Part shown: positions 12,926 through 62,486 of the stretch, piece by piece
Numbering within the stretch: position 1 is the first letter of the stretch
Layout: every line of letters begins with the position of its first letter
Position numbers and translations under genes: made by a program
From: Promethearchaeota archaeon
GTDB taxonomy: Archaea > Asgardarchaeota > Lokiarchaeia > Sigyniarchaeales > SOKP01
Length of the DNA: 64,000 nt
Direction of reading: 5' to 3'
Assembly (NCBI GenBank): GCA_019058295.1
Contig: JAHPZI010000014.1
Location: forward strand, 1-64,000
The notes under the pieces: model-generated
Told to the model about the DNA's origin: nothing
Databases searched by the model: none
Seen by the model: the letters and a program-made list of their open reading frames with translations, nothing else

Positions 12926-14671
12926 ATGATAATAAAAATAAACTCAATTGAGAGCACTATAGAAATTTTTTATGAAAAATATGTACATCTTCATGGATTC
13001 ATAAAGCTTGAAGCTGAAAGTGACGATAAAGAATATAGAATAATAATTCAAATCTTAAACGAGCAAACCATTATTGATTACGTGTTAACTCGTCAAAAAT
13101 TAAAAAATGTAAGGATGACAGATTATATAAAAGCTGAATTAGAGACTGAGCTTCAATATGTGATACAAGGGCGACCGATTATTTGTACTGAAATTGATAA
13201 AAAAACTAAGAAGGAAACGCATAAAACTCTAAATGTATTTTTCTTTATTGAAGATCTAATGGAAAAGGAAGTTTTAAAGCCCCATTCAATGAAGATATCA
13301 GAGATTCAAAAGGATAGAGCAATCTATTTGGAAAATATTTTTACTCCAGACGGGATATATATGGGAGATTTAGCATCAGAATCGAATGTAAAAGTTTTCT
13401 TTCCTTTGAAATATTTAATGTATCATTTCTTTATTGCGGGTGCAACAGGTCAGGGAAAATCCAACTTAAATCAAGTTTTTATTGATGGCTTACTTCAACA
13501 TAACGCAAACGTAATAATGAATGGAAAGGGGACAAAAGTTTCTATGCTCGCAATTGATATGCATGATGAATATGCATTAGGTTGTAATAATTATGGATTA
13601 TACCATATAATTAAAACATTGGATGTGAGCGCTGTTAAAAAATTAATTGGTAAATGGTTTTATCTCTATCCAAATAAAGGGCTCCCTCCTACAGAAGTAA
13701 AAAGTATGGCAGAACCATGCATAATTAATTATCAAGAGATAAAGCCCCAAGATCTCTTTGCTACGGGCTCATTCAACGAACTACAAGCTGGAGCTATACA
13801 TTCTGCTTATCATGATAATCCAAATGATTATATTGATAATCTATTAGATGACACTTATTTCCCACCAGGAAATCATGATCCTAAAACAATTTCAGCTATT
13901 AGAAGACGTCTTAACTGGTTGGAATATTCAGATATATTTCAATCAAATGCAAGTAGCAAACTACCATCGATTATTAAGAAGTTAGAAAAAGGAGGAATTA
14001 TCATATTTAATGTCTCGCTATTAAGAGATTTAGAGCAATTTTTATTTAATAGTGTATTAGCAAGGACTTTATTTGATATCCGTAAGACTTTAAAATCATC
14101 AACTGATTATTCTACTTTTGAGACAAAACTGGGTAAAGCGCTTCCTCAAAATTTCTTTGATAATTACAAGGCTAATTTGAAAAAGTTATATATTTCATCT
14201 GGAACAAATATAAAAGATCCCTATGATATGCCTATTATTATCTTTACAATAGAAGAAGCCCCTAGTATATTACGGCCAGAAATAATGAAATTTAGTAACG
14301 TATTCAAGGATATATCACGGCAAGGTAGAAAATTTAACTTAGGATTAGAAGTAATTTCACAGCAATATACTCCAATAGACGATACAATAATATCGAATAT
14401 GAATACTGTAGTGAATTTACCTTTAAGATCAGAAAAGGAAAAATCAGCAGCGTCAAAGATATTAGGGGGAGGGATTCAATATAGCGATATTGAATCTTTA
14501 ACAGGCACGAGGGGTATTGCTTTAATTTCTGGAATATGGTTAACCAACTTCCAAAAATTAAGAATTCCGTTATATGATGATTACTTTAAAGAAGTTTCAG
14601 AAAAATATTATATTGAATTTTCAAAAAAAATGAAATCACAAACATCAACTCCCCCAACAGGTCTCCCTTAA
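12926..14671 (+). CDS. herA: HerA-family helicase/ATPase
   Basis: Walker A GATGQGKS, DMHDEY, Walker B IEEA, arginine finger RQGRKF, SQ motif; upstream of nurA-mre11-rad50. Confidence 0.85.
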   Translation: MIIKINSIESTIEIFYEKYVHLHGFIKLEAESDDKEYRIIIQILNEQTIIDYVLTRQKLKNVRMTDYIKAELETELQYVIQGRPIICTEIDKKTKKETHKTLNVFFFIEDLMEKEVLKPHSMKISEIQKDRAIYLENIFTPDGIYMGDLASESNVKVFFPLKYLMYHFFIAGATGQGKSNLNQVFIDGLLQHNANVIMNGKGTKVSMLAIDMHDEYALGCNNYGLYHIIKTLDVSAVKKLIGKWFYLYPNKGLPPTEVKSMAEPCIINYQEIKPQDLFATGSFNELQAGAIHSAYHDNPNDYIDNLLDDTYFPPGNHDPKTISAIRRRLNWLEYSDIFQSNASSKLPSIIKKLEKGGIIIFNVSLLRDLEQFLFNSVLARTLFDIRKTLKSSTDYSTFETKLGKALPQNFFDNYKANLKKLYISSGTNIKDPYDMPIIIFTIEEAPSILRPEIMKFSNVFKDISRQGRKFNLGLEVISQQYTPIDDTIISNMNTVVNLPLRSEKEKSAASKILGGGIQYSDIESLTGTRGIALISGIWLTNFQKLRIPLYDDYFKEVSEKYYIEFSKKMKSQTSTPPTGLP

Positions 14672-14708: not shown

Positions 14709-15908
14709 ATCTCTTTTGACTTTGAATTAATCTCACTAGACAATTCTATTGAAAACAGACCAGAACGATCAATAGATCAAGAAATTAAACAATTCAAGGA
14801 ATATATAAAAGAGAGAAGGATTAAATGGACGGAAGAGGAAAAAATCGAATTAGAAACGGATAAATTTGATAGTGATGAAACTCTCAAAAACACTAATGCT
14901 CATTTTAGTGAAATGATTTATGAGATTATTGAAAATGAATTGCCCGATTATATAAATAAAGAATATAAGATTATTGGATTTGATGAAAGTTCAAATACTT
15001 TAAGTGGAACTTATGCCAGATTAGCCTCCTTCAAATTTGGTGAAGGTCAAGTTATACTTAAAGATGGAAAATATAAGATAGAAAAAATAATGTATCGACC
15101 TATCAGTAGTTATATAGAAGATAATGAACACAAGCTTATCGTTTATAAGACAGTAATAGAGAATTTTGTGAAAACCGTTAAAAGAGACTTTTATACTGGT
15201 AGTCTAAAAGGGAAAATTGATGACTTGGAAGATTGGTATGAAAATACCTATAAAAAAAAAATAGATGATCATATTAAAGGGCATGATTTTTATTATCCCT
15301 CATTAGGACATGTAGTTGATAGAATTAGAACTGCAGATGAAATTTTAAAATCGTTGATTAGAATTAAAGAAGAGAGCAATTGGGGTAAAAATAAAAATGT
15401 TATTTTTCTTGGAGATGGGATTCAGATGTTTCGACAACATATTTTTCCACCCTCATCTTTCATAGAATTTTTTTATAGATTCATTGTTGATTATGATATT
15501 AAATATTATAGTTTCTCCAAGACTTGCAGATTAAGAGATGCTCAAGGTAATTTTATTTTACCAATTTGGTCAGAAATTTTAAAAACTAAAAGATTTTTAG
15601 TGGAATTACCAGATCTATCAGTTTATACTAAAAGTAAAGCCTATATAACAAGATTACAGGAAGAAAGTTCAGCATTAAGATTTGATATTCCAGATTACTT
15701 GGATACAAAAGATGCAAGTTATATTTTAAAAAATTTAATTCCATACTCCCCAAGAGGATATCCATTATGTCTAATTGGTGCTCATGAGGCAAGTACATTA
15801 TTGGTTTCAGAATATAATAAATTAGAGAGTAAATTTATGGAATTAAAATTTGATCCAAAAATTAAAAGATATACTGAATCTTGGAGGCATAAAGTGCTTG
15901 GTGAATAA
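14709..15908 (+). CDS. nurA: NurA-family nuclease (probable ATC start at 14709; first ATG at 14913)
   Basis: IIGFDES, LGDG, FSK and GYPLCLIGAHEAS motifs; frame open from 14706; GAGGTG 8 nt before the ATC. Confidence 0.75.
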   Translation: MSFDFELISLDNSIENRPERSIDQEIKQFKEYIKERRIKWTEEEKIELETDKFDSDETLKNTNAHFSEMIYEIIENELPDYINKEYKIIGFDESSNTLSGTYARLASFKFGEGQVILKDGKYKIEKIMYRPISSYIEDNEHKLIVYKTVIENFVKTVKRDFYTGSLKGKIDDLEDWYENTYKKKIDDHIKGHDFYYPSLGHVVDRIRTADEILKSLIRIKEESNWGKNKNVIFLGDGIQMFRQHIFPPSSFIEFFYRFIVDYDIKYYSFSKTCRLRDAQGNFILPIWSEILKTKRFLVELPDLSVYTKSKAYITRLQEESSALRFDIPDYLDTKDASYILKNLIPYSPRGYPLCLIGAHEASTLLVSEYNKLESKFMELKFDPKIKRYTESWRHKVLGE

Positions 15909-15953: not shown

Positions 15954-17261
15954 ATGGTTAAAATTATTCATATGGCAGATACCCATTTAGGATATAGAGA
16001 AGGAAGAGGTACTATAAATAAATGGGCTATACCGAATTATTCAAAACCTTACGAACAAGAAATTTATGATGCATTTTTAAAAGTTATAGATGATGTCTCT
16101 AAACTAAAGGATGTAGATTTCTTGGTCCACTGTGGAGATATGTTTCATTTACCTAGTGTTAATAGATCATATCCCCCTCCAGAACCCGCAAGACGAGTTT
16201 TAAAAACTGCATTAGATACTTTCTTTAAAAATTCAAATAATAAAGTACCTTTTATCTATGTTGAAGGAAATCATGGTGTGTTTAAAGTATATGAATATAC
16301 CCCGTTTGAATCACATATTAGCAAAGAAAAATATCCTAATCTCTATTATTACAAAGATCGAGATTTAATAGAAGCAATAAAAACGAATAACCCTTTAAAA
16401 CTTGAATTTAATGAAAAAAAAGTTTGTTTTTATTTATTTCCTTATTTTGAATTTAAAAGCCATGCTGAGTATAAGAATGCTTACAATAATTGGATAATTA
16501 ATCAAAAACCTGATGATAATGATTATATTAATATTGCAATTGCTCATGGGTCTAAATTAGATGAAACGCTACACAAAAAAGTAAGCTCAGATGATTTTGG
16601 ATATGACTATATTGCTCTAGGACATGAACACGGGTTAAAATCAGAATCAAGAACTCATTATTACGCTGGATGTTTATTGCCCATGAATTTTAAAGAAATA
16701 ACTGAAACTCAGGGATATTTAATTATAAATATTGAAGAGAAAACGAGAAAATTAAAGGTTGAAAAAGTTTTTACTGATAAAATGTTAACAAGACCGTTTG
16801 AAATAATTTCTATTAATATTTCTCCTCAAGAAAGCTCAGAAGAATTAAGAAATAATGTGAATAAAGAATTAATTAACTATATTTCTAAGGATGGATTTGA
16901 CCCTAAAACATCAGCAAGATTAAAAATGAATTTTACTGGAGAATTGACATTCGAAAAACTCTGGCAAATAAATGATTTAATGGTAAAACTTAGAAGGGAA
17001 TGCTTTTCTCAAACAGATAAATATAATATATTGCAATTAATCTGGCAAGTTTCTGATATTTCCGAAACAATTGAGGATGACATTAGTCCTGGAATTATTG
17101 AGGATTATATTTTGGAAAAACCAGAAGAAGAATTTAATAATTTTGTTAAAGAGAAATTGACAGAGGAAAGCACACAGTTCAACGTTGAAAAGCTAACTCA
17201 ATTTGGATTGAGTGCGATAAAAAGCGCTTTAAGAATAATGGATAAAGAAGAGGAGGTTTAA
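15954..17261 (+). CDS. mre11: Mre11/SbcD nuclease
   Basis: ADTHLG, CGDMFH, GNH, AHG and YIALGHEH phosphoesterase motifs. Confidence 0.9.
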   Translation: MVKIIHMADTHLGYREGRGTINKWAIPNYSKPYEQEIYDAFLKVIDDVSKLKDVDFLVHCGDMFHLPSVNRSYPPPEPARRVLKTALDTFFKNSNNKVPFIYVEGNHGVFKVYEYTPFESHISKEKYPNLYYYKDRDLIEAIKTNNPLKLEFNEKKVCFYLFPYFEFKSHAEYKNAYNNWIINQKPDDNDYINIAIAHGSKLDETLHKKVSSDDFGYDYIALGHEHGLKSESRTHYYAGCLLPMNFKEITETQGYLIINIEEKTRKLKVEKVFTDKMLTRPFEIISINISPQESSEELRNNVNKELINYISKDGFDPKTSARLKMNFTGELTFEKLWQINDLMVKLRRECFSQTDKYNILQLIWQVSDISETIEDDISPGIIEDYILEKPEEEFNNFVKEKLTEESTQFNVEKLTQFGLSAIKSALRIMDKEEEV

Positions 17262-17269
17262 TTAAAGCT

Positions 17270-19348
17270 GTGCAAATAACCAAACTTATTTTTAAAAATT
17301 TTATGGGTTATAAACAATTAAATCTGCCTGATGGAGAAGATGACTTTCCTGAGGGTTTAATTCTAGTGAGTGGGAAAAATTCTTATGGGAAATCTACTAT
17401 ATTAGAAGGTATTTTATTTGCTTTTTTTGGGTCAAAAATTTTTATTGGTAGAAAGGCTGATTCTTTTATAACCTATGGTCAAAATAAAGCAGAATTGAGT
17501 GTATATTTCTCGCTTGATAATATTAAATATTATATATATCGTAAATGGGGCAGATCTGGAAGTGCCAGTGCGAAACTCTTTGAATTAGATAAAAAAGGAA
17601 TGTACCGGGAAATTAAAAAATTTAATATCGAGAAATTTTTTGAAATTTCAAAAGACCAAGCTATGAGTACTGTATTTGTAAGACAAGGAGAAGTAGAAGA
17701 ATTGGCCAATATCAAGGGTGCTAAACTAAGAGAAATGATTATCGATTTATTTCGTCTTAATATAATTGACGATTCATTAAAATATCTAGATACAGAATCA
17801 AAGTCAAAAACTCATGAAAAGGAAAAATTTGAAAAATCTCGTGTTCCAATTGAAAGAATAGAAGAAGATATAAAGCGTATTGAACAGGAAAACAATGATA
17901 ACAAGAAAATTATCTCAGAAAAAGAAAAAATAATGCTCGAATACGAATCGAGACTTAAAACCTATCCTTCAAACGAATTAATTTCCAATTTAGAGAACTT
18001 GTATAAAAATAAAGAAATAACTGAAGAAAAATATAAATCTTATAAAAATGATTTTGAAACGAAAATTAAGAATACTGATTTAAATTTAGAAGATTTCACA
18101 TCTTTAGAAAAAATTAAGAATAAATTTGATATCTTAGATAACTCAAAAAGAGAAATTGAAGCTAATAAAGAGAATTTAGATAAAAAAAAGCAAGCAACTG
18201 TTAAAGGTATGGGAAAAACTAAAGGTAGAGTTGAAGATATTTCAAAAATAATTTGTAAAATGGAAAAAAGTTTACAATTTACTGAAAATGAAACCGCCCT
18301 CTGTCCTACATGTCAAAACGAACTTACAAAAGAGCACTATGATACTGTTATTCAGAATTTTAATGAAGAACTTGCCCTAAATCAGAAAAAAATTAAGGAA
18401 ATATCTCAATTAATAAATGATAACAATAAAGATATTGAGAAATGTCAACAAGAGTTAGATAAAATAAACGAACAAATTACAATTATTCAAAATCTTAAGA
18501 AAGACTTTGAGAATTATCAAAAATATGATATAGAATTAACGAATATTCAAAAAGAACTATCCGATTTTTTAAAAAAAAATAAAGAGAGGTTCAAGGATTC
18601 AAGTCCTAAGGGAATAAAGGATATTTCTCTCGAAATAGAAAGATTAACAACGGAATTGAAATTGATTAAGAAGGCAATAACAGAAAAAAGAGATAATATT
18701 AAAAATAATCAAACTAGAATTACGGAATTGGGCAATGAAATCAAAAGAATGAAAGATTTAGAGAAGAAAATTGGCGAGATTGAAATTGATCTTGAACATA
18801 TCATTAAAGCAAAAGAATTCGTACGACGATTTGTAACGGAATATATGGTTGTTAAGCGTCTTGTAAAAAACATTACGTTGAAAGCGGATAGATATATTAA
18901 GGATTTTACATCAGGTCAATATGGAGAACTTATGCTAGATTTAACAGGAACTAAAAAGACAGGACTTTCTCTTAAAATTAAGGACTATTTTAATGGTGAA
19001 TATGAACCTATCGAGGTCCTTTCAGGAGGCGATCATACTGCGTTAGGTATGGCTTTAAGATTAGCTATTTGTGAATTAATGAGCATAATTCGTCCAACTA
19101 AAGAGTCTCCAAAAAAAAATCCAAAAATCAATTTTCTTTTATTAGATGAACCTTTAGCAGCTTTAGATGAGGTTAGGAGAGAGCGAATATTAAAGCATCT
19201 TACAAAATCTAAAGCATTTTCTCAGATTTTCCTAATAACTCATACATCTATCCCGTCAGATATTCAAACGCATAAAATACTAGTAGAAAAAGATCATTCC
19301 ACAGGAATTAGCCATGCGAGATTTGAAAAGTTAAGCGTAATTTTATAA
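17270..19348 (+). CDS. rad50: Rad50/SbcC ATPase
   Basis: GKNSYGKS, Q-loop VRQG, central CPTC zinc hook (aa 345), signature LSGGD, LLDEP, ITH. Confidence 0.9.
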   Translation: MQITKLIFKNFMGYKQLNLPDGEDDFPEGLILVSGKNSYGKSTILEGILFAFFGSKIFIGRKADSFITYGQNKAELSVYFSLDNIKYYIYRKWGRSGSASAKLFELDKKGMYREIKKFNIEKFFEISKDQAMSTVFVRQGEVEELANIKGAKLREMIIDLFRLNIIDDSLKYLDTESKSKTHEKEKFEKSRVPIERIEEDIKRIEQENNDNKKIISEKEKIMLEYESRLKTYPSNELISNLENLYKNKEITEEKYKSYKNDFETKIKNTDLNLEDFTSLEKIKNKFDILDNSKREIEANKENLDKKKQATVKGMGKTKGRVEDISKIICKMEKSLQFTENETALCPTCQNELTKEHYDTVIQNFNEELALNQKKIKEISQLINDNNKDIEKCQQELDKINEQITIIQNLKKDFENYQKYDIELTNIQKELSDFLKKNKERFKDSSPKGIKDISLEIERLTTELKLIKKAITEKRDNIKNNQTRITELGNEIKRMKDLEKKIGEIEIDLEHIIKAKEFVRRFVTEYMVVKRLVKNITLKADRYIKDFTSGQYGELMLDLTGTKKTGLSLKIKDYFNGEYEPIEVLSGGDHTALGMALRLAICELMSIIRPTKESPKKNPKINFLLLDEPLAALDEVRRERILKHLTKSKAFSQIFLITHTSIPSDIQTHKILVEKDHSTGISHARFEKLSVIL

Positions 19349-54185: not shown

Positions 54186-54413
54186 ATGGTTAACATGAAA
54201 GATATCGAAAAACTTATGGAGGATTTTATGTTAGATCCAGATGTAAAGTTTGGCGAATTAAAAACATACCTTTTAAATGAATTCGAATGGAATGCAGATC
54301 CCCTGAATTCTCAATTTTATGTTAGAGGACTTCCAATATCAGATGATAGTAGTGTAAGTGAGATGCTAAAAAAGCATTTACCTAATGAAATTATTGTACT
54401 TAAGGAAGTTTAA
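54186..54413 (+). CDS. Small protein, possible beta-grasp (ubiquitin-like) fold without C-terminal GG
   Basis: Pattern FMLDPDVKFGELK...QFYVRGLPISDDSSVSEM...IIVLK; stop codon abuts the next ATG. Confidence 0.5.
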   Translation: MVNMKDIEKLMEDFMLDPDVKFGELKTYLLNEFEWNADPLNSQFYVRGLPISDDSSVSEMLKKHLPNEIIVLKEV

Positions 54414-55537: not shown

Positions 55538-58150
55538 TTATCCAATTTTCTCTAATGCTTCAGTAAGAATTTTAGGAATATCCATAATTTTTAAGATATA
55601 CACAATCTCCCCTTTAGTTGTGTCTAATATCCATTTGGCATAACGTTTAGAATAAGATCTTGTATTCACACCAAGCATAAATTTAACTTTTTGATTAACA
55701 TAGGATTGGAGTTCTTTCTTGATTTCTTGTTCCTTCTCGAAAAATTGACAATCCGTTAATAAAAAACAAATCTTCATTTCAGTAGTAGTTTCCTCTAATT
55801 GTTTTGCACCCCAATTTAGAGCTGCTTGAACTCTTGTACCGCCTCTAGCATGCAAATCTAACAATTCGTCTGCTACATCCTCTAAATTCTTCTCATCACC
55901 AAATTTCTTTACTACATGTGTATTTGATTCAAAAAAGCATATTGCCACCTCATCTGCTCGTAAACTACCAATAAGAACCATGACTGCTATTGAGCACGCA
56001 GCTAATTTCATACCGCCCATAGAACCCGAGATATCTAACATAAAGCAAATTGAAACCCTTCCCTTTTCTGTCTCAGCTACCATAAGATCTTCAGACATAA
56101 TCATATCTAATGATTTTCCTTGCATAACAATATTTTCAATGGACGCATCAATATCAATTAAATCCATATCATCACCTTCTATAAAAATGCGAAGCTTATT
56201 AGTAGGTATAAGCCCTTTTTCACCACTACCACGTTGATTTGAAATCATATTAAGAGCTATTTTGATTAGAGCATCTTTCACCAGATTTCTAACAAAGCTT
56301 TTCATTTTAGAGGGAATTTGTTTCCTGCTCATGAACCATTGAATTAATAAGTTATCTCCTGGACCTGCCGTAAGTGATTCAGCTAATTTTTGTTGAGCGT
56401 GTTCTCCAAATTGTTGGGCTTTACTAAATGCTTGTCCTAGGTTATGATGTCCAAGAGCACCCATAGCTTGAAGATTTCCATTACTTAGAGCAGATTGCAT
56501 TAATTCTTGGATCTGAATCCCTGTAAGATTTCCAATATTTTTCATAATGGATGTATAGCGTTGAAAATTTCCTAATTTATTTGCAATCATAGATTTAAGA
56601 AGTTCATAATTCCCTCCTAGTATTTCTAATATTGTGGGTTCTGGAAGTCCTACCTTTATTCCTAATTTAACTACTTCATTTTTATCCAACGAAACATGTT
56701 GGCTAACTAAGGATCGTAAACAATTTTCAAATATTTCTGGTGTTGTGGCAGCCTCTAAAGATTTCATTCCTGCAATTCCGGCATTCTTTTGAAATCTCTT
56801 ACTACACGAATCAAAGACAGCTTGGGATGATAATTGCATTAACTGCATAGATAAATCTGCCATATTATAAGCCGCTTGTCCCTTTTTTGACTGTATATCA
56901 TTCAATTGATCTTGAACGCATTGATCAAGCATTTTTTGCCATTGTGTTATATCAGTTTGCGCTTGAAAAATTTCAGGTAATGTTGGTGTTGAATTATTTT
57001 TACTCCACTGATTAAATAAATCATTTGTTAGGCTTGTATTAAACATTTGATCCATTGTGCGAGTAATATTAAACGCACCACCCATATCTTTGTTTAAACT
57101 ATTTGTCATAGTTTTTTTATGATCGAATTGAGGTATATATTCTAAAACAGACGAAATTTCCATGATATCTAACAAATCTTTAGCTCTCTGGACTAGATTA
57201 TTAGCAAGATTTTTAGCGGCACTTGAATCTAATCCTGCTTCCTTTAAATAACGTGCAGTTCTGGCTGCTGTCCCTACATCTTCGTTTTTCATGATGTCCG
57301 AGAGCGTTTGTTGAAAATTAGGATCGTTCATACAATATTGAGTTGTGGATTTTATCCAAGGAACTGTTGATTGCTTTATAATATTAGATCCCCACCCTAA
57401 TTTAACAGATGAAATTATATCTTTTGGTGAGATTGTGTTTACTTCTCTCATTATTGTCTGTTGAAGATAATCTTTAAGCATTTGAAGAGAATTAAGATTT
57501 TTCCCCAAAATATCTGAATAACCGTTGCGCTGTTCTAATATATCTATTAAACTTTGATAGGGTTCTTCACCTCTAGCTGCTCTATCATAAAGATCATTAA
57601 TAAAATCCATTAAATTTGAAAAATCTTTCAATGTCTGATCTACAATATTTTCCATATCCAAATTATCTAAATCAAGTCCCGAATCAACAAATTCAGATAG
57701 TAATTCATCCATAAAATCTATCTTATCAGAATCATCTTTATCTTGCAGTATTGCTTTTGTGCTGGGAGTGCCTGCTTTTGCAGATCCTTTCGTTTTTGGT
57801 TCTACCTTTTTTGGAAAGATAATATCAAAAGCAATTTGACGCGCAACTTCTTGATCTTCAATGGGGGTTGTTATAACTGCTGCTTTAATAAAATCCTCAG
57901 GTACTAAAGTAACCTTACGATAATACATTGCAGTTAATAATTTTGGTATAGCCACTGCTTGCCGTGTACTTGGTACGTTTAGCAATTTTTTTTGAGTTTT
58001 TCGCATTTGAAAGATAAATTCTACTGTAAATGAAATAGGGGTCCATTCTAAAAGTTGATTTGTACTAAAATCACCGATATTTCCTTTGTCAATTTGTTTT
58101 CCAATCATTTCTACTATTTTATTAATTTTAATGAAATTATGAAACTCCAA
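55538..58150 (-). CDS. Large vWA-domain protein (MoxR partner; start likely ATG 58108)
   Basis: GDDMDLIDIDASI, MIDAS DISGS, GGT and LLTD motifs at the C-terminus; long Gln/Asn-rich helical middle. Confidence 0.85.
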   Translation of the reverse strand: MEFHNFIKINKIVEMIGKQIDKGNIGDFSTNQLLEWTPISFTVEFIFQMRKTQKKLLNVPSTRQAVAIPKLLTAMYYRKVTLVPEDFIKAAVITTPIEDQEVARQIAFDIIFPKKVEPKTKGSAKAGTPSTKAILQDKDDSDKIDFMDELLSEFVDSGLDLDNLDMENIVDQTLKDFSNLMDFINDLYDRAARGEEPYQSLIDILEQRNGYSDILGKNLNSLQMLKDYLQQTIMREVNTISPKDIISSVKLGWGSNIIKQSTVPWIKSTTQYCMNDPNFQQTLSDIMKNEDVGTAARTARYLKEAGLDSSAAKNLANNLVQRAKDLLDIMEISSVLEYIPQFDHKKTMTNSLNKDMGGAFNITRTMDQMFNTSLTNDLFNQWSKNNSTPTLPEIFQAQTDITQWQKMLDQCVQDQLNDIQSKKGQAAYNMADLSMQLMQLSSQAVFDSCSKRFQKNAGIAGMKSLEAATTPEIFENCLRSLVSQHVSLDKNEVVKLGIKVGLPEPTILEILGGNYELLKSMIANKLGNFQRYTSIMKNIGNLTGIQIQELMQSALSNGNLQAMGALGHHNLGQAFSKAQQFGEHAQQKLAESLTAGPGDNLLIQWFMSRKQIPSKMKSFVRNLVKDALIKIALNMISNQRGSGEKGLIPTNKLRIFIEGDDMDLIDIDASIENIVMQGKSLDMIMSEDLMVAETEKGRVSICFMLDISGSMGGMKLAACSIAVMVLIGSLRADEVAICFFESNTHVVKKFGDEKNLEDVADELLDLHARGGTRVQAALNWGAKQLEETTTEMKICFLLTDCQFFEKEQEIKKELQSYVNQKVKFMLGVNTRSYSKRYAKWILDTTKGEIVYILKIMDIPKILTEALEKIG

Positions 58151-59087
58151 CTACTTTCGTTAAAACTTTTTTCAAAAAACTGTTAACATTTGCTCCAGGA
58201 CGAAGTTCAACAGAATCTGGAAGGATTAATTTCGCAGATTCAGCAATTAATTTATTATCTACGGTCTGATTCAATCTACTTGCCCGTTCTGAAACAAATC
58301 TTGCCAGACCTATACTGGTGCGCAAGCTAGGAGGTTTCTCAATCGCAGGATCTTCCCGACACTGTATCATTATTTCTAAGATTTTCTCTTGTGTTAAAGC
58401 AGAAAGTTTATATTCTGGACAATTTGCGACCATTATTTTCTGTTCTAACGAACGTGGTGGATATCCCATGTGAATCCACACTTTTACTCGATCTTTGATT
58501 GCTGAAGGAAGCTTTCTAGTTCCTTTTAATTCAGCAGGGTTCATAGCAGCGATTACATAGAATTCTTCATCGACTTTTAACCAAGTTTTAAGTTGTGGTA
58601 TGTATAATCGCTTTTCTTCCATGGCATCTAACATACTGTTAAGAACATACTCATCACCTCTATTAAGTTCATTTGCTAGAAAGACACCTCCTTTTAGAGC
58701 AGAGAGTGTAAACGGTCCAGGAATATATGATTCCGGAGAGAACCCATATTTAAACACTAGAGTAGGATCAAATGAACCTATTAGTGTGGCTGGTCGAACT
58801 AAGTCCGAAAAAGTTACCCAGTAGAATTCTCGATTCAAATCAAAGGCGAATTTACGACAAAGAGCGGTTTTACCACATCCCACGGGTCCGACTATACCCA
58901 CAAATAATCCTGCGTTATACGCATCCTTCATGGCTTCATATGCATATTTATATTGGCCTTCTAAGACCAAATTGATATCCTCTTTAATATCAACTATTTT
59001 TTTAGATTCCATCAATTCTGAAAATTCTTTGGAATTTTCATCTATTGATTGAGTTTTTTTTTGCGTTGGTAAAGGTTTTTTTGCCAT
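58137..59087 (-). CDS. MoxR-family AAA+ ATPase
   Basis: GPVGCGKT, PGP, Walker B variant LANELNR, AAMNP, LPSAIKDR and PPSLR motifs. Confidence 0.9.
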   Translation of the reverse strand: MAKKPLPTQKKTQSIDENSKEFSELMESKKIVDIKEDINLVLEGQYKYAYEAMKDAYNAGLFVGIVGPVGCGKTALCRKFAFDLNREFYWVTFSDLVRPATLIGSFDPTLVFKYGFSPESYIPGPFTLSALKGGVFLANELNRGDEYVLNSMLDAMEEKRLYIPQLKTWLKVDEEFYVIAAMNPAELKGTRKLPSAIKDRVKVWIHMGYPPRSLEQKIMVANCPEYKLSALTQEKILEIMIQCREDPAIEKPPSLRTSIGLARFVSERASRLNQTVDNKLIAESAKLILPDSVELRPGANVNSFLKKVLTKVVGVS

Positions 59088-59135
59088 TATTTTTCATTTT
59101 TTTTTTTTAATTTTATATAAATATAATTTTTTTAT

Positions 59136-59672
59136 CTAATCTTCAAAAAATTTTTCAGTCTCCGTTGGCTGGATGACAATCGGGACTTCATATTTTAATT
59201 TCTTTATAGCATTTGTAATTTTATCATAATCGGTATCGTTAACAATACTTCTTCGAGTGAATCCTAATCTATCTGTTATAAATTTTCCTAAAAAGGTTTC
59301 TTTTAATCCTGAAATATTATATTTTCTCCCTTTTTTAAGAATTTTACATTGTTTTAACTCATCAATTCTCTTTACAAGAATTAGTTTAGCTATTGGCTGC
59401 CAAAATTCATTACTTTTCATAGTATCTAATAGAAAATCACGATGATTTATTTCCTCGTTCTTTAACATTACAGTAAGTTCCTTCAAAAAGTTCATAGAAA
59501 ATCTTCTTTTAAAATCATCAGAAGAAACATATTCTTGAATATCATTCTTCGCACTGAGAAAAACAGATTTAAGATCGTCCATCTTCCCGAGATAAATCTG
59601 TTCAAATTCATCCATAAATGATTTAACACCTTGTTCAATTCCTATAATTTGAGGAGCTTCGTTAGCACACAT
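59136..59672 (-). CDS. Hypothetical protein between the SMC-like ATPase and MoxR
   Basis: 178-aa ORF, 17 nt downstream of the SMC-like gene. Confidence 0.7.
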   Translation of the reverse strand: MCANEAPQIIGIEQGVKSFMDEFEQIYLGKMDDLKSVFLSAKNDIQEYVSSDDFKRRFSMNFLKELTVMLKNEEINHRDFLLDTMKSNEFWQPIAKLILVKRIDELKQCKILKKGRKYNISGLKETFLGKFITDRLGFTRRSIVNDTDYDKITNAIKKLKYEVPIVIQPTETEKFFED

Positions 59673-59689
59673 TTAATTCCCTTTTGGAT

Positions 59690-62224
59690 TTATCTTTCAA
59701 TTTTAATTTTTTTATTACATGTTATTTTATCTACATCTTGATGGGTGATTAACATTACTTGGGTATTTTCTGATAATGTATTTATATTAGATAATAAGGT
59801 GATTCGGTTATTAGAATCCATAAACTCTGTAGGCTCATCTATTAACAAAAAGGGGGGTGTTCCAATTAAATCTCCAAGCGCAATCTTGTATGCAAGTCCC
59901 AATATGAGTTTATGTCCTCCTCCTTGGTAAACTGCAGCAGGATAAAATTCGTCTGATACCATCTCATTTGGCACGACTGAAAGACTATAGTTTTCATTAT
60001 CTATAATAACTTTTTTAAACTCATCATCAGAAGATAGTTTTTGATGCAAGTTCAATATTTGTTTTTCAAGAACTTTTGAAGCGTTTTCGCGAATAATAGT
60101 TTGAACTTCTACGAATAATTTATGAAAATTTCGATATTTTTCCGCTAATACTTCTTTTTTATTTAGTAAAATTATTTCCTTTTCAATAGCAGCAAAATTT
60201 TTATCTAAATCGATAATTTGATTTCTGATTTCATTAAGATTTTCATTAGTCTCGTTTTTTTGATTATTTAAATGTTCCAATATAGTTGATATCTCAGATA
60301 TCTTGGTAATTATTAATTCTGTTAGCTCGTCTCTAATTTTAATAATATGTTCTAAAGATAGTTCTTCTTTCTTAACTTCCATTTTTTTGGCTATTTGAGA
60401 CAAGGTTTCATTTAAGTATTTCTGATCTTTTGAAGTTTCTTTTGACGTCTTTTCAATCTTCTCTTCAATTCTTTGTTTTGTAGAGGCAAAATTTTTAAGG
60501 AGATTTTCTTCTTCTGTTTGACATGACTTTTCTGCCACTGCAATTTCACCTTTAAATCCCTTTAATTTATCGTCTAACTCTTTTAATCGACTTGTTTGAT
60601 TTTCAATCGTATGTAATTCATTTTCTAAATCTTTTTCTATTCCTCGTAACTCCTCTAATTGTTTTTTATTTTTCTCAACTGTTTTTTCTTTTGATAAAAT
60701 CGAATTTTTAATTGTCTTTAATTTTTGATCTAATTCCTCATCAGAAGAGATTTTTCCCTTCTTTTCTTCTAAGTTCTCAATTTTTTGAATTGAATTCTCA
60801 ATAGTAAGTGTTCCTGAATTTAGTTCTTTTTCCTCTTCCCTTAAGGTTTTTAACTCGTTTTTTACTTCTATCTCTCTATTCTCATTAGACTTAATCTTAT
60901 TCCTTAGATCCTGCAACTTTTCCTTTAATAATTTCATCTCACTCTCAATTTTCGAATGTTCTATAGAAGCTCCGCAATATTCGCATTTTGGTTTATCTTT
61001 TGTTTGTTCTCTTCTTTTTAAAATTCCTTCAATGTCTCCATTTTCTCTTTCTGCATCTCTAAAAAAATTTTGTAAGCTTTCGACTTCTTTTTCAAGAGTA
61101 GATATCTTTTTTGAGATTATTTCCATTTGATTGGATTGAGTCTTTAATTTCTTTAAGAGCTCTTCTTTATTTCCTACATCATCAATAATTATTTTTAGAT
61201 CTTCTGAAATATCATTTAGTTGTTTTATAATATTTTCAGTTTCTATTTTGTTATTTTCCAATTCCCGAATTTCTTTTAAACTAGTCTCTATTTCTGTATC
61301 TGCTGATATTAGTTTATTATTATTATCTGTTAATTTTTTTTTTATAGAAGTTGTTTTTTTTTTTAAACTGCTCTGCGTTCCAAAGTTTTTCTTACTCCCT
61401 TCAAACTCTTTTTTAACCATATCTTCCTTTAATTTAATATCTTCGAATTTTCTTTTTGTCTCTTCGTAGGATTCGACTGAATTAGAAATCTTTTCTGTAG
61501 ATTCCTTAAAAATCTTAAAGCTTTTTAATTCATTTTCTTTATTTTGAACCTCCTTTTGAATTTCTTTCAATTTACCTTCTTGATTTTGTAATTTTTCTTT
61601 TTGTTCTATTTTTTCTTTTTTATATTGATCCAACGTAATTCTTAAAGTATCGATGTTTTTCGCTTCTTTTTCAAATTCTAAGGCTCGCGCTCGAAAAATA
61701 TCCGCTAATGTTGTGGCTGCGGTTATTCCAAAAACAATGTCTAATTTTTTAGAACCAGCAAGAATTTCTGATATTGTTCCTTGGTGGAAATGTATTCCTG
61801 TTTCAAAAAATCTTTTTGAAATTCCCATTAATTCATTAATTTTTAAAGATAGATCTTCTTCGCGATCACCAAAGTCTGATGATATAACATAGCTTTCACT
61901 GTCGTCATATATCTTTTTTAATGTATAAGATCCTTTAGCAGAACGATGCTTTCCAGATAATTTATGAATTCGCTGTAATTTGTATCTTTCACCATTTTTG
62001 CTCTTAAAAATAAGTTCCACACCTACAGCATTAGCTTTATAGGTTGCCAACTGCGAAATCTTTTTAAAGCCAAGCACATTTCCAAAAAGGCAGTATTCAA
62101 TGCCATAAAAAACTGTAGACTTACCCGCATTGTTTCTACCATAAATAAGATTGAATTCATCATCAAATTCTAAGCGGAGATCATCATGTTTCCGGAAATT
62201 TTTTAATCGAATCCCTTCAATCAT
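59690..62224 (-). CDS. Rad50/SbcC-like SMC-family ATPase with degenerate signature motif
   Basis: GRNNAGKS, Q-loop FHQG, CEYC hook (aa 414), YQGGGH in place of LSGG(E/Q), IDEPT, ITH; long coiled coils. Confidence 0.88.
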   Translation of the reverse strand: MIEGIRLKNFRKHDDLRLEFDDEFNLIYGRNNAGKSTVFYGIEYCLFGNVLGFKKISQLATYKANAVGVELIFKSKNGERYKLQRIHKLSGKHRSAKGSYTLKKIYDDSESYVISSDFGDREEDLSLKINELMGISKRFFETGIHFHQGTISEILAGSKKLDIVFGITAATTLADIFRARALEFEKEAKNIDTLRITLDQYKKEKIEQKEKLQNQEGKLKEIQKEVQNKENELKSFKIFKESTEKISNSVESYEETKRKFEDIKLKEDMVKKEFEGSKKNFGTQSSLKKKTTSIKKKLTDNNNKLISADTEIETSLKEIRELENNKIETENIIKQLNDISEDLKIIIDDVGNKEELLKKLKTQSNQMEIISKKISTLEKEVESLQNFFRDAERENGDIEGILKRREQTKDKPKCEYCGASIEHSKIESEMKLLKEKLQDLRNKIKSNENREIEVKNELKTLREEEKELNSGTLTIENSIQKIENLEEKKGKISSDEELDQKLKTIKNSILSKEKTVEKNKKQLEELRGIEKDLENELHTIENQTSRLKELDDKLKGFKGEIAVAEKSCQTEEENLLKNFASTKQRIEEKIEKTSKETSKDQKYLNETLSQIAKKMEVKKEELSLEHIIKIRDELTELIITKISEISTILEHLNNQKNETNENLNEIRNQIIDLDKNFAAIEKEIILLNKKEVLAEKYRNFHKLFVEVQTIIRENASKVLEKQILNLHQKLSSDDEFKKVIIDNENYSLSVVPNEMVSDEFYPAAVYQGGGHKLILGLAYKIALGDLIGTPPFLLIDEPTEFMDSNNRITLLSNINTLSENTQVMLITHQDVDKITCNKKIKIER

Positions 62225-62246
62225 AAAAATACCTCAAAAAATTGAT

Positions 62247-62486
62247 TTATTCATTATCTTTTAAATCTTCCATTACTACCTCATTTTCAAAAAGTCTCGC
62301 TTCAAACATTTCTTGAATCCGTTCAATTAACTCATCTTTCGCTTTCTTTAAAAGATTAAGAGTTTTTGTTAAATTCTTCTCATCATCATATAAATAGTTG
62401 GTAAATTCGAATAAGCGTGCTAAATTATTTTTTTCTCTATCGTTTAATTCAAATTTACTAAGGATTTCCGTAATTTCAAAATTCAT
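62247..62486 (-). CDS. Small acidic helical hypothetical protein, first gene of the SMC-MoxR-vWA operon
   Basis: 79-aa ORF with GGGGAG SD, 22 nt upstream of the SMC-like gene. Confidence 0.7.
   Translation of the reverse strand: MNFEITEILSKFELNDREKNNLARLFEFTNYLYDDEKNLTKTLNLLKKAKDELIERIQEMFEARLFENEVVMEDLKDNE

Follow-up and report, generated by a model that had tools for sequence, protein, structure and literature searches.

A conserved five-gene operon of Asgard archaea and bacteria encoding a Rad50-like zinc-hook ATPase, a putative adaptor, and a MoxR-vWA pair

Organization of the locus

The DNA under investigation is a stretch of 64,000 nucleotides from a Promethearchaeota archaeon (assembly GCA_019058295.1, contig JAHPZI010000014.1, positions 1 to 64,000), referred to here as the window. 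On its minus strand, between positions 55538 and 62486, lie five co-oriented genes whose translations, taken from the list of open reading frames (ORFs), are 79, 844, 178, 316, and 870 (or 856) amino acid residues long. In operon order these encode a small protein, p79, a Rad50-like ATP-binding cassette (ABC) ATPase belonging to the superfamily of structural maintenance of chromosomes (SMC) proteins, a second small protein, p178, a MoxR-class AAA+ ATPase, and a large protein carrying a von Willebrand factor A (vWA) domain with a metal ion-dependent adhesion site (MIDAS). The gaps between the genes are 22, 17, 48, and 28 nt, the last being measured to a vWA start at ATG 58108. An initial annotation, made from the letters alone, had described the genes as co-oriented and tightly spaced, and all of the reading frames were indeed found on the minus strand at the positions given below.

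62247..62486, minus strand: p79, the gene at the head of the operon, encoding a small, helical, acidic-tailed protein (ORF and translation)
59690..62224, minus strand: 844-residue Rad50-like (CxxC-type) SMC-superfamily ABC ATPase (Pfam AAA_23, 4.8e-20)
62114..62140, minus strand: Walker A motif of the ATPase, GRNNAGKST, with NNAGK(S/T)T invariant among family members
60974..60985, minus strand: zinc-hook motif CEYC, residues 414-417, in the middle of the coiled coil (family alignment)
59912..59926, minus strand: variant ABC signature QGGGH, residues 767-771 (family alignment)
59828-59848, minus strand: Walker B motif of the ATPase, LLIDEPT (family alignment)
59136..59672, minus strand: p178, predicted adaptor (AlphaFold2 model, pLDDT 88)
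59145..59183, minus strand: C-terminal tail of p178, P..(I/V).PT.TE.FF, invariant in 43 sequences
58137..59087, minus strand: MoxR-class AAA+ ATPase of the AAA_5 type, 316 residues (Pfam)
58659..58682, minus strand: Walker B motif of MoxR, FLANELNR (alignment of 11 orthologues)
55538..58108, minus strand: vWA protein, 856 residues from ATG 58108, or 870 residues from TTG 58150
56021..56035, minus strand: MIDAS motif DISGS, followed by GGT and Asp 800 (15 aligned vWA sequences)

For the vWA gene, ATG 58108 is a more likely start than TTG 58150, because the orthologues start there and because a database record of 856 residues is identical over the central region that was searched. Shine-Dalgarno-like sequences, GGGGAG and GAGGT, precede the starts of the p79 and ATPase genes. 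An AT-rich, TATA-like stretch lies ∼40 nt upstream of p79, which is weak evidence in DNA with a G+C content of ∼30%.

Conservation of the gene order

The initial annotation had proposed that the ATPase is coupled to the MoxR-vWA pair and had suggested that the neighborhood be compared across Asgard genomes. Nineteen related Asgard loci were fetched that are not interrupted by a contig end, and each of them contains the same five genes in the same order. The arrangement is present in genomes G017, G027, G015, G030, and G055, in eleven further Lokiarchaeial loci, and in three other Asgard families (G366, G135, and G105). It is also found in two loci of the Myxococcota, L015 and L021, which belong to metagenome-assembled genomes of the Sandaracinaceae and Kofleriaceae, and on further bacterial and archaeal metagenome contigs, where some of the neighboring genes are bacterial in character (ECF sigma factors, FecR, and cytochromes). 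A scan of the genome contigs was swamped by the C-termini of generic ABC ATPases, such that only L015, L016, and L021 were informative. One of the homologues is named Candidatus Lokiarchaeum ossiferum in the NCBI and UniRef records.

Given that the order is the same in 19 Asgard loci as well as in bacterial loci, the five-gene arrangement is far beyond chance. The genes flanking the operon are unrelated between loci. This synteny across Archaea and Bacteria amid unrelated flanks, together with the discreteness of the ATPase family and the p178-head contact predicted by modeling (both described below), strongly supports the coupling of the ATPase to the MoxR-vWA pair.

The Rad50-like ATPase

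The ATPase (P0002) matches the Pfam families AAA_23 (4.8e-20) and SMC_N. When a profile of 20 family members was searched against the PDB, the archaeal Rad50 heads ranked first (E of 7e-33), with SMC3 and SMC6 weaker by ∼15 orders of magnitude. In a search of 5.8 billion proteins the family proved to be discrete, its members being retrieved with E values of 1e-63 or lower and the next proteins, SbcC-like sequences of the Aquificota, at 1e-15 or worse. The protein scores 96.3 bits against the NCBIfam Rad50 equivalog NF003034, the cut-off of which, 700 bits, is not reached. A search of its own genome returned the canonical Rad50 as the only other match, with an E value of 4.9e-4.

The motifs expected of a Rad50 or SbcC head are in place. 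Walker A (NNAGK(S/T)T), Gln 148 of the Q-loop, Walker B (LLIDEPT), Asp 803 of the D-loop, and Thr-His 828 of the H-loop are invariant in the family. As in Mre11-Rad50 and SbcCD, a long antiparallel coiled coil carries a central CxxC hook. Cys 414, Glu 415, Cys 417, and Gly 418 (CExCG) are invariant in all 20 aligned members and are preceded by the invariant pair Arg 404-Arg 405; the Pfam Rad50_zn_hook model does not match the protein at E ≤ 0.1. The coiled coil is of full length in the archaeal members, and much shorter in the bacterial ones, which are proteins of 620-720 residues that keep the hook.

The ATPase differs from Rad50 and SbcC in its signature motif, in its position below the family cut-offs, and in its partners. 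The consensus signature of Rad50 is LSGGE or LSGGER. Read against it without gaps, the QGGGH of the ATPase replaces serine with glycine and glutamate with histidine, in accord with the earlier observation that the signature is not of the LSGG type. In this region Pro 762, Ala 763, and Gly 768-Gly 770 are invariant, and Gln 767 and His 771 vary in a few members. The partners encoded here are p79, p178, MoxR, and the vWA protein in place of an Mre11 or SbcD nuclease. Indeed, Pfam searches identified no metallophosphatase gene within or adjoining the operon in the window, and the initial report of a CEYC hook lacking an adjacent Mre11 or SbcD was thus confirmed.

A canonical repair set does lie ∼40 kb away, and consists by Pfam of HerA/DUF87 (12926-14671), Mre11/Metallophos (15954-17261), and a 692-residue Rad50-like protein (17270-19348). 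It had been listed as a complete herA-nurA-mre11-rad50 set. The identities of HerA, Mre11, and Rad50 hold, whereas for the 331-residue ORF between herA and mre11 (14913-15908, plus strand), which had been taken for NurA, Pfam yields nothing at E ≤ 0.001. The accompanying suggestion that the operon copy is not the ordinary repair Rad50 is strongly supported, in keeping with its discrete family, its score of 96 versus 700 bits, and its own set of partner genes.

The p178 and p79 proteins

The AlphaFold2 model of p178 (pLDDT 88) consists of an N-terminal three-helix bundle, a C-terminal α/β domain, and a terminal tail. Six residues of the tail, Pro 164, Pro 169, Thr 170, Glu 173, Phe 175, and Phe 176, are invariant in 43 sequences. 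The protein has no match among the families of Pfam, NCBIfam, or PADLOC or among PDB sequences. A Foldseek search with the full model gave no match at E ≤ 0.001; the best VIA Z score, 6.3, covers the N-terminal helices only. For the C-terminal domain by itself the best scores were a Z of 4.5 for the N-domain of T4 UvsW and 3.0-3.2 for the N-domains of XPB and MutS. Neither set of matches was used, and with regard to a kleisin-like winged-helix fold, the best PDB Z scores of the two models, 6.3 and 4.5, are not above noise. The C-terminal domain is rare: a profile search found it in 99 clusters among 1.84 billion representatives, nearly always at the C-terminus of the protein.

The complex of the ATPase head (residues 1-230 and 640-844) with p79 and p178 was predicted as four chains with alignments made for the purpose, p178 being the scored partner. 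The score for p178 with the head is 0.69, as compared to 0.00 for the best of three controls. Of 80 solved complexes 58 attain this mark, as do 2 of 110 mismatched pairs, a calibration that is rough here given the separate alignments and the four chains. The runs share at least 74% of their contacts, and the pLDDT of the partner is at least 79. In the models, tail residues 170-173 and 175-176 of p178 lie against head residues 6, 8, 66-70, 84-86, 99-101, and 104-118, a patch that includes the family-conserved Gln 84, Arg 85, Thr 101, Glu 110, Tyr 112, Ser 115, and Asp 117. The prediction supports, rather than demonstrates, binding of p178 to the ATPase head by way of its C-terminal tail.

Additional information about p178 comes from loci that lack a Rad50-like gene. 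Three of these, L078-L080 (genomes G143, G169, and G178), encode the same MoxR-vWA family, with the MoxR proteins being 54-59% identical. There, MoxR is preceded by two proteins referred to as X (∼234-266 residues) and Y (∼339-402 residues), for which no Pfam family was found. The X-Y genes of the Asgard genomes are positioned as follows.

L078:9852-11620: X and Y genes
L079:7192-9182: X and Y genes
L080:10086-11925: X and Y genes
L100:6300-8020: X and Y genes

In L078-L080 the Y proteins, encoded directly upstream of MoxR-vWA, end in the α/β domain of p178 (blastp E values of 1e-7 to 3e-5), and they do not carry the p178 tail. Thus, the tail accompanies the ATPase, whereas the domain accompanies the MoxR-vWA pair. 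The contig encoding P0232 shows the same X-Y-MoxR-vWA order. In L100, where Y likewise ends in the p178 domain, the Y and MoxR genes are separated by one for a 1415-residue WD40 protein, and these SMC-less relatives sit with giant WD40 and HEAT proteins. The X and Y proteins likewise belong to no family in NCBIfam, PADLOC, or PDB sequence searches. Recurrent weak matches, all below the cut-offs, were to SAV0927-like proteins (best E of 0.0045) and to ABC-3C CTD1 (0.0035, in one member). From the modeled interface and the sharing of its domain, p178 looks like an adaptor bridging the ATPase half and the MoxR-vWA half of the system.

A p79 homologue precedes the ATPase gene in every locus examined. 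Its conserved core in the family alignment is F.(F/Y)T(N/Q)YL.DDE.NLTK, and it has no family match in Pfam, PADLOC, or NCBIfam or among PDB sequences. The notion that p79 is a detached Rad50-binding domain of Mre11 was considered; hhalign comparisons with two Mre11 proteins gave a probability of 0.1%, and the idea remains speculative.

The MoxR-vWA pair

The MoxR protein (P0004) matches Pfam AAA_5 (5.8e-19, 68.9 bits versus a cut-off of 22) and AAA_3 (1.2e-14, 54.8 bits versus a cut-off of 27). Its best matches in the PDB are the AAA modules of midasin (8.8e-23), ahead of NorQ/CbbQ (6e-6); the bpMoxR family (PF20030) gives an E value of only 0.033. MoxR is by far the most conserved of the five proteins, with identities of 82-83% within the Lokiarchaeia and of 57-60% between archaea and bacteria.

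The vWA protein (P0005) contains a conserved N-terminus of ∼110 residues, an acidic linker, a helical region of ∼450 residues, and, last, the C-terminal vWA domain. Pfam VWA_2 matches residues 702-800 only (1e-10), and no Pfam domain was found in the central ∼450-residue region in any of 35 homologues; NCBIfam, PADLOC, and PDB sequence searches likewise assigned this region to no family. The MIDAS is complete, with Asp 706, Ser 708, Ser 710, Thr 772, and Asp 800 invariant in 15 vWA sequences. The protein is encoded 28 nt downstream of moxR.

As in NorQ-NorD, CbbQ-CbbO, RavA-ViaA, and eukaryotic midasin/Rea1, an AAA_5-type MoxR is accompanied by a large protein that ends in a vWA domain and has the full MIDAS. 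Two differences from these are apparent. First, the Walker B motif of the operon MoxR is Asn-Glu (FLANE) rather than the canonical hhhhDE; the asparagine is invariant in 11 of 11 orthologues and is also present in the SMC-less relatives. Second, the presumed client would be a Rad50-like DNA ATPase reached through an adaptor, and not a metalloenzyme, Rubisco, or a pre-ribosome. In two MoxR-vWA pairs without such a partner, the vWA proteins match that of the operon only in the N-terminal block and in the residues after ∼465.

Several observations on these proteins may be recorded here. The N-terminus of the vWA protein (PSTRQAVAIPKLLTAMYYRK, window 57850-58108, minus strand) may resemble the sensor-2/lid region of MoxR; hhalign aligned 40 columns around a PSxR motif with a probability of 7%. 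A second MoxR of the same family, 54% identical, occurs with a shorter or diverged vWA protein and without the ATPase and adaptor genes in two genomes (G055:C1:4377362-4378246, locus L075, and G037:C65, locus L081). A MoxR paralogue of 36-43% identity is present in about half of 400 Asgard genomes.

Association with DNA-repair genes

In genomes G015, G280, G281, and G282, which are Lokiarchaeial, the operon is immediately preceded, in the same orientation, by genes for a superfamily 1 (SF1) helicase (AAA_11/AAA_12), Mre11, and a 918-residue Rad50, resulting in an eight-gene array.

L011:13210-18969: helicase-mre11-rad50 genes upstream of the operon; also in L090, L091, and L093

In G030 the end of a Rad50-like gene is directly upstream of the operon, and a further archaeal contig has herA-mre11-rad50 right beside the operon in divergent orientation. 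Note that the mre11 genes preceding the operon have their own Rad50 gene beside them.

Two variants of the system are of particular relevance. In a Lokiarchaeial locus the gene order is ATPase, adaptor, MoxR, and vWA, and the adaptor (L083:1078-1959) carries an N-terminal BRCT domain (Pfam, 7e-7, 29.8 bits versus a cut-off of 21.3) that replaces the helical bundle in front of the p178 C-terminal domain. A bacterial contig (L014:7738-11608) contains only p79, the ATPase, and the adaptor, with a Y-family (IMS/DinB) polymerase gene 10 nt downstream and no MoxR-vWA pair. Taken together, the mre11-rad50 adjacency, the BRCT adaptor, and the DinB-linked variant point towards the handling of DNA breaks. 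No nuclease was found in the system itself.

Possible function of the system

The five proteins very probably act together, with p178 bridging the two halves. With regard to what they do, we tentatively favor, at nearly even chances, an accessory machine for the handling of DNA breaks or DNA damage in which AAA+/MIDAS-based remodeling takes the place of a nuclease. According to this proposal, the Rad50-derived ATPase, dimerized via its CxxC hook and probably with p79 as a subunit, would bind DNA, with ends or damaged structures as the most plausible targets. The tail of p178 would dock onto the N-lobe of the ATPase head, and its α/β domain would recruit the midasin-like MoxR ring along with the vWA/MIDAS partner. 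ATP-driven protein remodeling would thereby be supplied where Mre11 supplies a nuclease. The MoxR-vWA pair may act on the Rad50-like clamp itself, resetting or unloading it, or else strip proteins from the DNA to which the clamp is bound. The system as a whole would assist in the handling of double-strand breaks or DNA damage.

Several observations weigh against this proposal. The adjacency to mre11-rad50 is limited to two related genera and one contig, and hence to few independent events, and it is absent in the window and in most loci. The proposed contact of p178 with MoxR or the vWA protein is drawn from gene co-occurrence. The signature serine of the ATPase is replaced by glycine and the Walker B aspartate of MoxR by asparagine, and thus, judging from these motifs, either ATPase may be slow or regulatory. 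The giant WD40 and HEAT proteins of the SMC-less relatives recall the MoxR-vWA conflict systems (Kaur et al. 2020, PMC7159879). Finally, the distribution is sparse: MoxR of this type (at least 54% identity) is present in ∼30 of 400 Asgard genomes, about half of them in the family to which the window belongs and a few without the ATPase, and in 2 of 401 sampled Myxococcota. Such a pattern, with a sparse gene set shared across domains, is typical of defense systems as well.

A role in defense or conflict is accordingly the alternative that deserves the most attention, and we regard it as possible, albeit on the unlikely side. The ATPase would then sense foreign DNA ends or replication intermediates in the manner of LmuB, with the MoxR-vWA pair releasing or activating an effector, such as the 450-residue region of the vWA protein, and the operon would constitute a fifth kind of ternary system. 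The patchy distribution, an operon common to two domains of life, and the variable flanks are what would be expected. There are also precedents. Lamassu evolved from SbcCD, its nuclease having been swapped for modular partners (PMC12663957). Like the Lamassu ATPase, that of the operon is a Rad50/SbcC-derived CxxC protein devoid of a nuclease that has gained small partners and a swapped-in module, and a small gene just before the ATPase gene is reminiscent of lmuC. In the ternary conflict systems a MoxR-vWA core is joined by a third, sensor-like component, namely VMAP, iSTAND, FtsH, or a β-propeller fused to vWA, and a variable effector follows on the C-terminal side of the vWA domain (Kaur et al. 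2020, PMC7159879). The exchange of a Rad50-like module for an X-Y module, with or without WD40, through a shared domain follows the same plan, and the SMC-less relatives contribute the WD40 and HEAT giants.

The differences, however, are substantial. None of the five proteins has a recognizable effector domain: in contrast to Lamassu, nuclease, Sir2, and protease effectors are all missing, an AAA+/vWA pair is what has been added, and the coiled coil is of full length in the archaea. Unlike the described ternary systems, the vWA protein has no variable C-terminal effector, and none of the Pfam domains for VMAP, iSTAND, FtsH, or the β-propeller was found in the operon proteins; the third component is of a kind other than these four. 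The report on these systems does not mention Rad50, SbcC, or ABC ATPases (PMC7159879). The analogy to Lamassu and Wadjet drawn in the initial annotation did not extend to membership, and the PADLOC search that it had called for revealed no defense system. Four of the five proteins have no PADLOC family, and those matches obtained are generic to SMC proteins. The LmuB model PDLC03859 does match the ATPase (5.5e-30). That match is not specific to LmuB: each of the 14 control genomes is hit by the model as well, and in this genome it is the canonical Rad50 that obtains the higher score (85 versus 64 bits). No LmuA or LmuC match was obtained for p79, p178, or the vWA protein at E ≤ 0.1. In contrast to Wadjet and other SMC-kleisin complexes, the ATPase has a zinc hook in place of a hinge; JetC is matched at 6e-4 or weaker, and JetA, JetB, and JetD have no PADLOC matches among the operon proteins. 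No defense genes were recognizable among the neighbors listed in eight contexts, and no copy of the MoxR gene was found in the PLSDB plasmid, INPHARED phage, or IMG/VR collections. The identity of MoxR between archaea and bacteria (57-60%) likewise speaks against a conflict system.

A quite unlikely explanation is that the MoxR-vWA pair serves as a maturation chaperone for the Rad50-like complex, inserting the hook zinc or assembling a ring, as do NorQ-NorD and CbbQ-CbbO for their clients. The characterized pairs mature or reactivate an adjacently encoded enzyme (PMC9976466, PMC13036017, PMC4660213). Moreover, the hook cysteines are invariant, and p178, as modeled, could serve as a handle by which the MIDAS domain gets hold of the ATPase. 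However, the same MoxR-vWA family and adaptor domain are found in loci without any zinc-hook protein, and one bacterial variant retains the ATPase and the adaptor without the pair. Canonical Rad50 and SbcC are not known to need such chaperones for the assembly of their zinc hooks.

Still less probable is a structural or chromosome-organizing SMC-like protein of the arcadin-4, ASRP/Sph, or ClsN type, with the MoxR-vWA pair as the assembly factor of a scaffold. Weak NCBIfam matches to ASRP (7.8e-15) and arcadin-4 (2.4e-12) and the relation of MoxR to GvpN (3.2e-16) might suggest as much. The former two, however, are far below the family cut-offs and weaker than the matches to Rad50. Even within its own genus and family most genomes lack the system, which sits badly with a core role in chromosome architecture, and the zinc hook, the BRCT and DinB variants, and the mre11-rad50 adjacency speak for DNA transactions instead. 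That the ATPase is simply a second ordinary Rad50 working with the Mre11 at 15954, the MoxR-vWA genes being unrelated neighbors, is highly improbable despite its place in the Rad50 clade, its zinc hook, and the canonical mre11 in the window, given the marginal similarity to the window's own Rad50, the shortfall from the equivalog cut-off, the existence across two domains of life of a separate family with particular invariant residues and partner genes, and the Rad50 gene that already accompanies each adjacent mre11.

An accessory machine for the handling of DNA breaks thus remains the reading we favor, and a bolder version of it can be entertained, even if we consider it unlikely. In that version the system would be a nuclease-free DNA-end machine, in which a Rad50-like zinc-hook sensor would employ p178 to bring a midasin-like AAA+/MIDAS puller to DNA-bound proteins or to the sensor's own clamp, and ATP-driven extraction would replace nucleolytic clipping at blocked ends. 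It would represent a prokaryotic, largely Asgard, counterpart both of AAA+-driven protein removal at breaks and of the MIDAS-based pulling by midasin, with the p178 domain as a modular MoxR-vWA chassis for different sensors.

Rad50-family ATPases have so far been found with nucleases (Mre11, SbcD) or with toxic effectors (Lamassu), and a version wired to an AAA+/MIDAS pair would be a third solution. A Rad50-like ATPase would, in turn, be a new class of client for MoxR-vWA pairs. Since the system is found chiefly in Asgard archaea and has a MoxR that stands nearer to the midasin modules than to bacterial NorQ/CbbQ, it bears on how the AAA+/MIDAS machines and the DNA-break handling of eukaryotes may have arisen from prokaryotic ones. 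In line with the initial impression that the combination is not a described system, the full-text literature on MoxR with Rad50, SbcC, SMC, or Asgard yielded no description of the operon, the classification by Krishnan et al. 2020 (NAR 48:10045) being outside the scope of that search.

Flanking genes in the window

A 75-residue ORF (window 54186-54413, plus strand), which has no Pfam family and is not kept beside the operon elsewhere, abuts the gene for a radical-SAM enzyme. The latter is one of the flanking genes, all on the strand opposite to the operon, and these are metabolic in nature, encoding by Pfam an α/β hydrolase, the radical-SAM enzyme, UbiA, and TauE.

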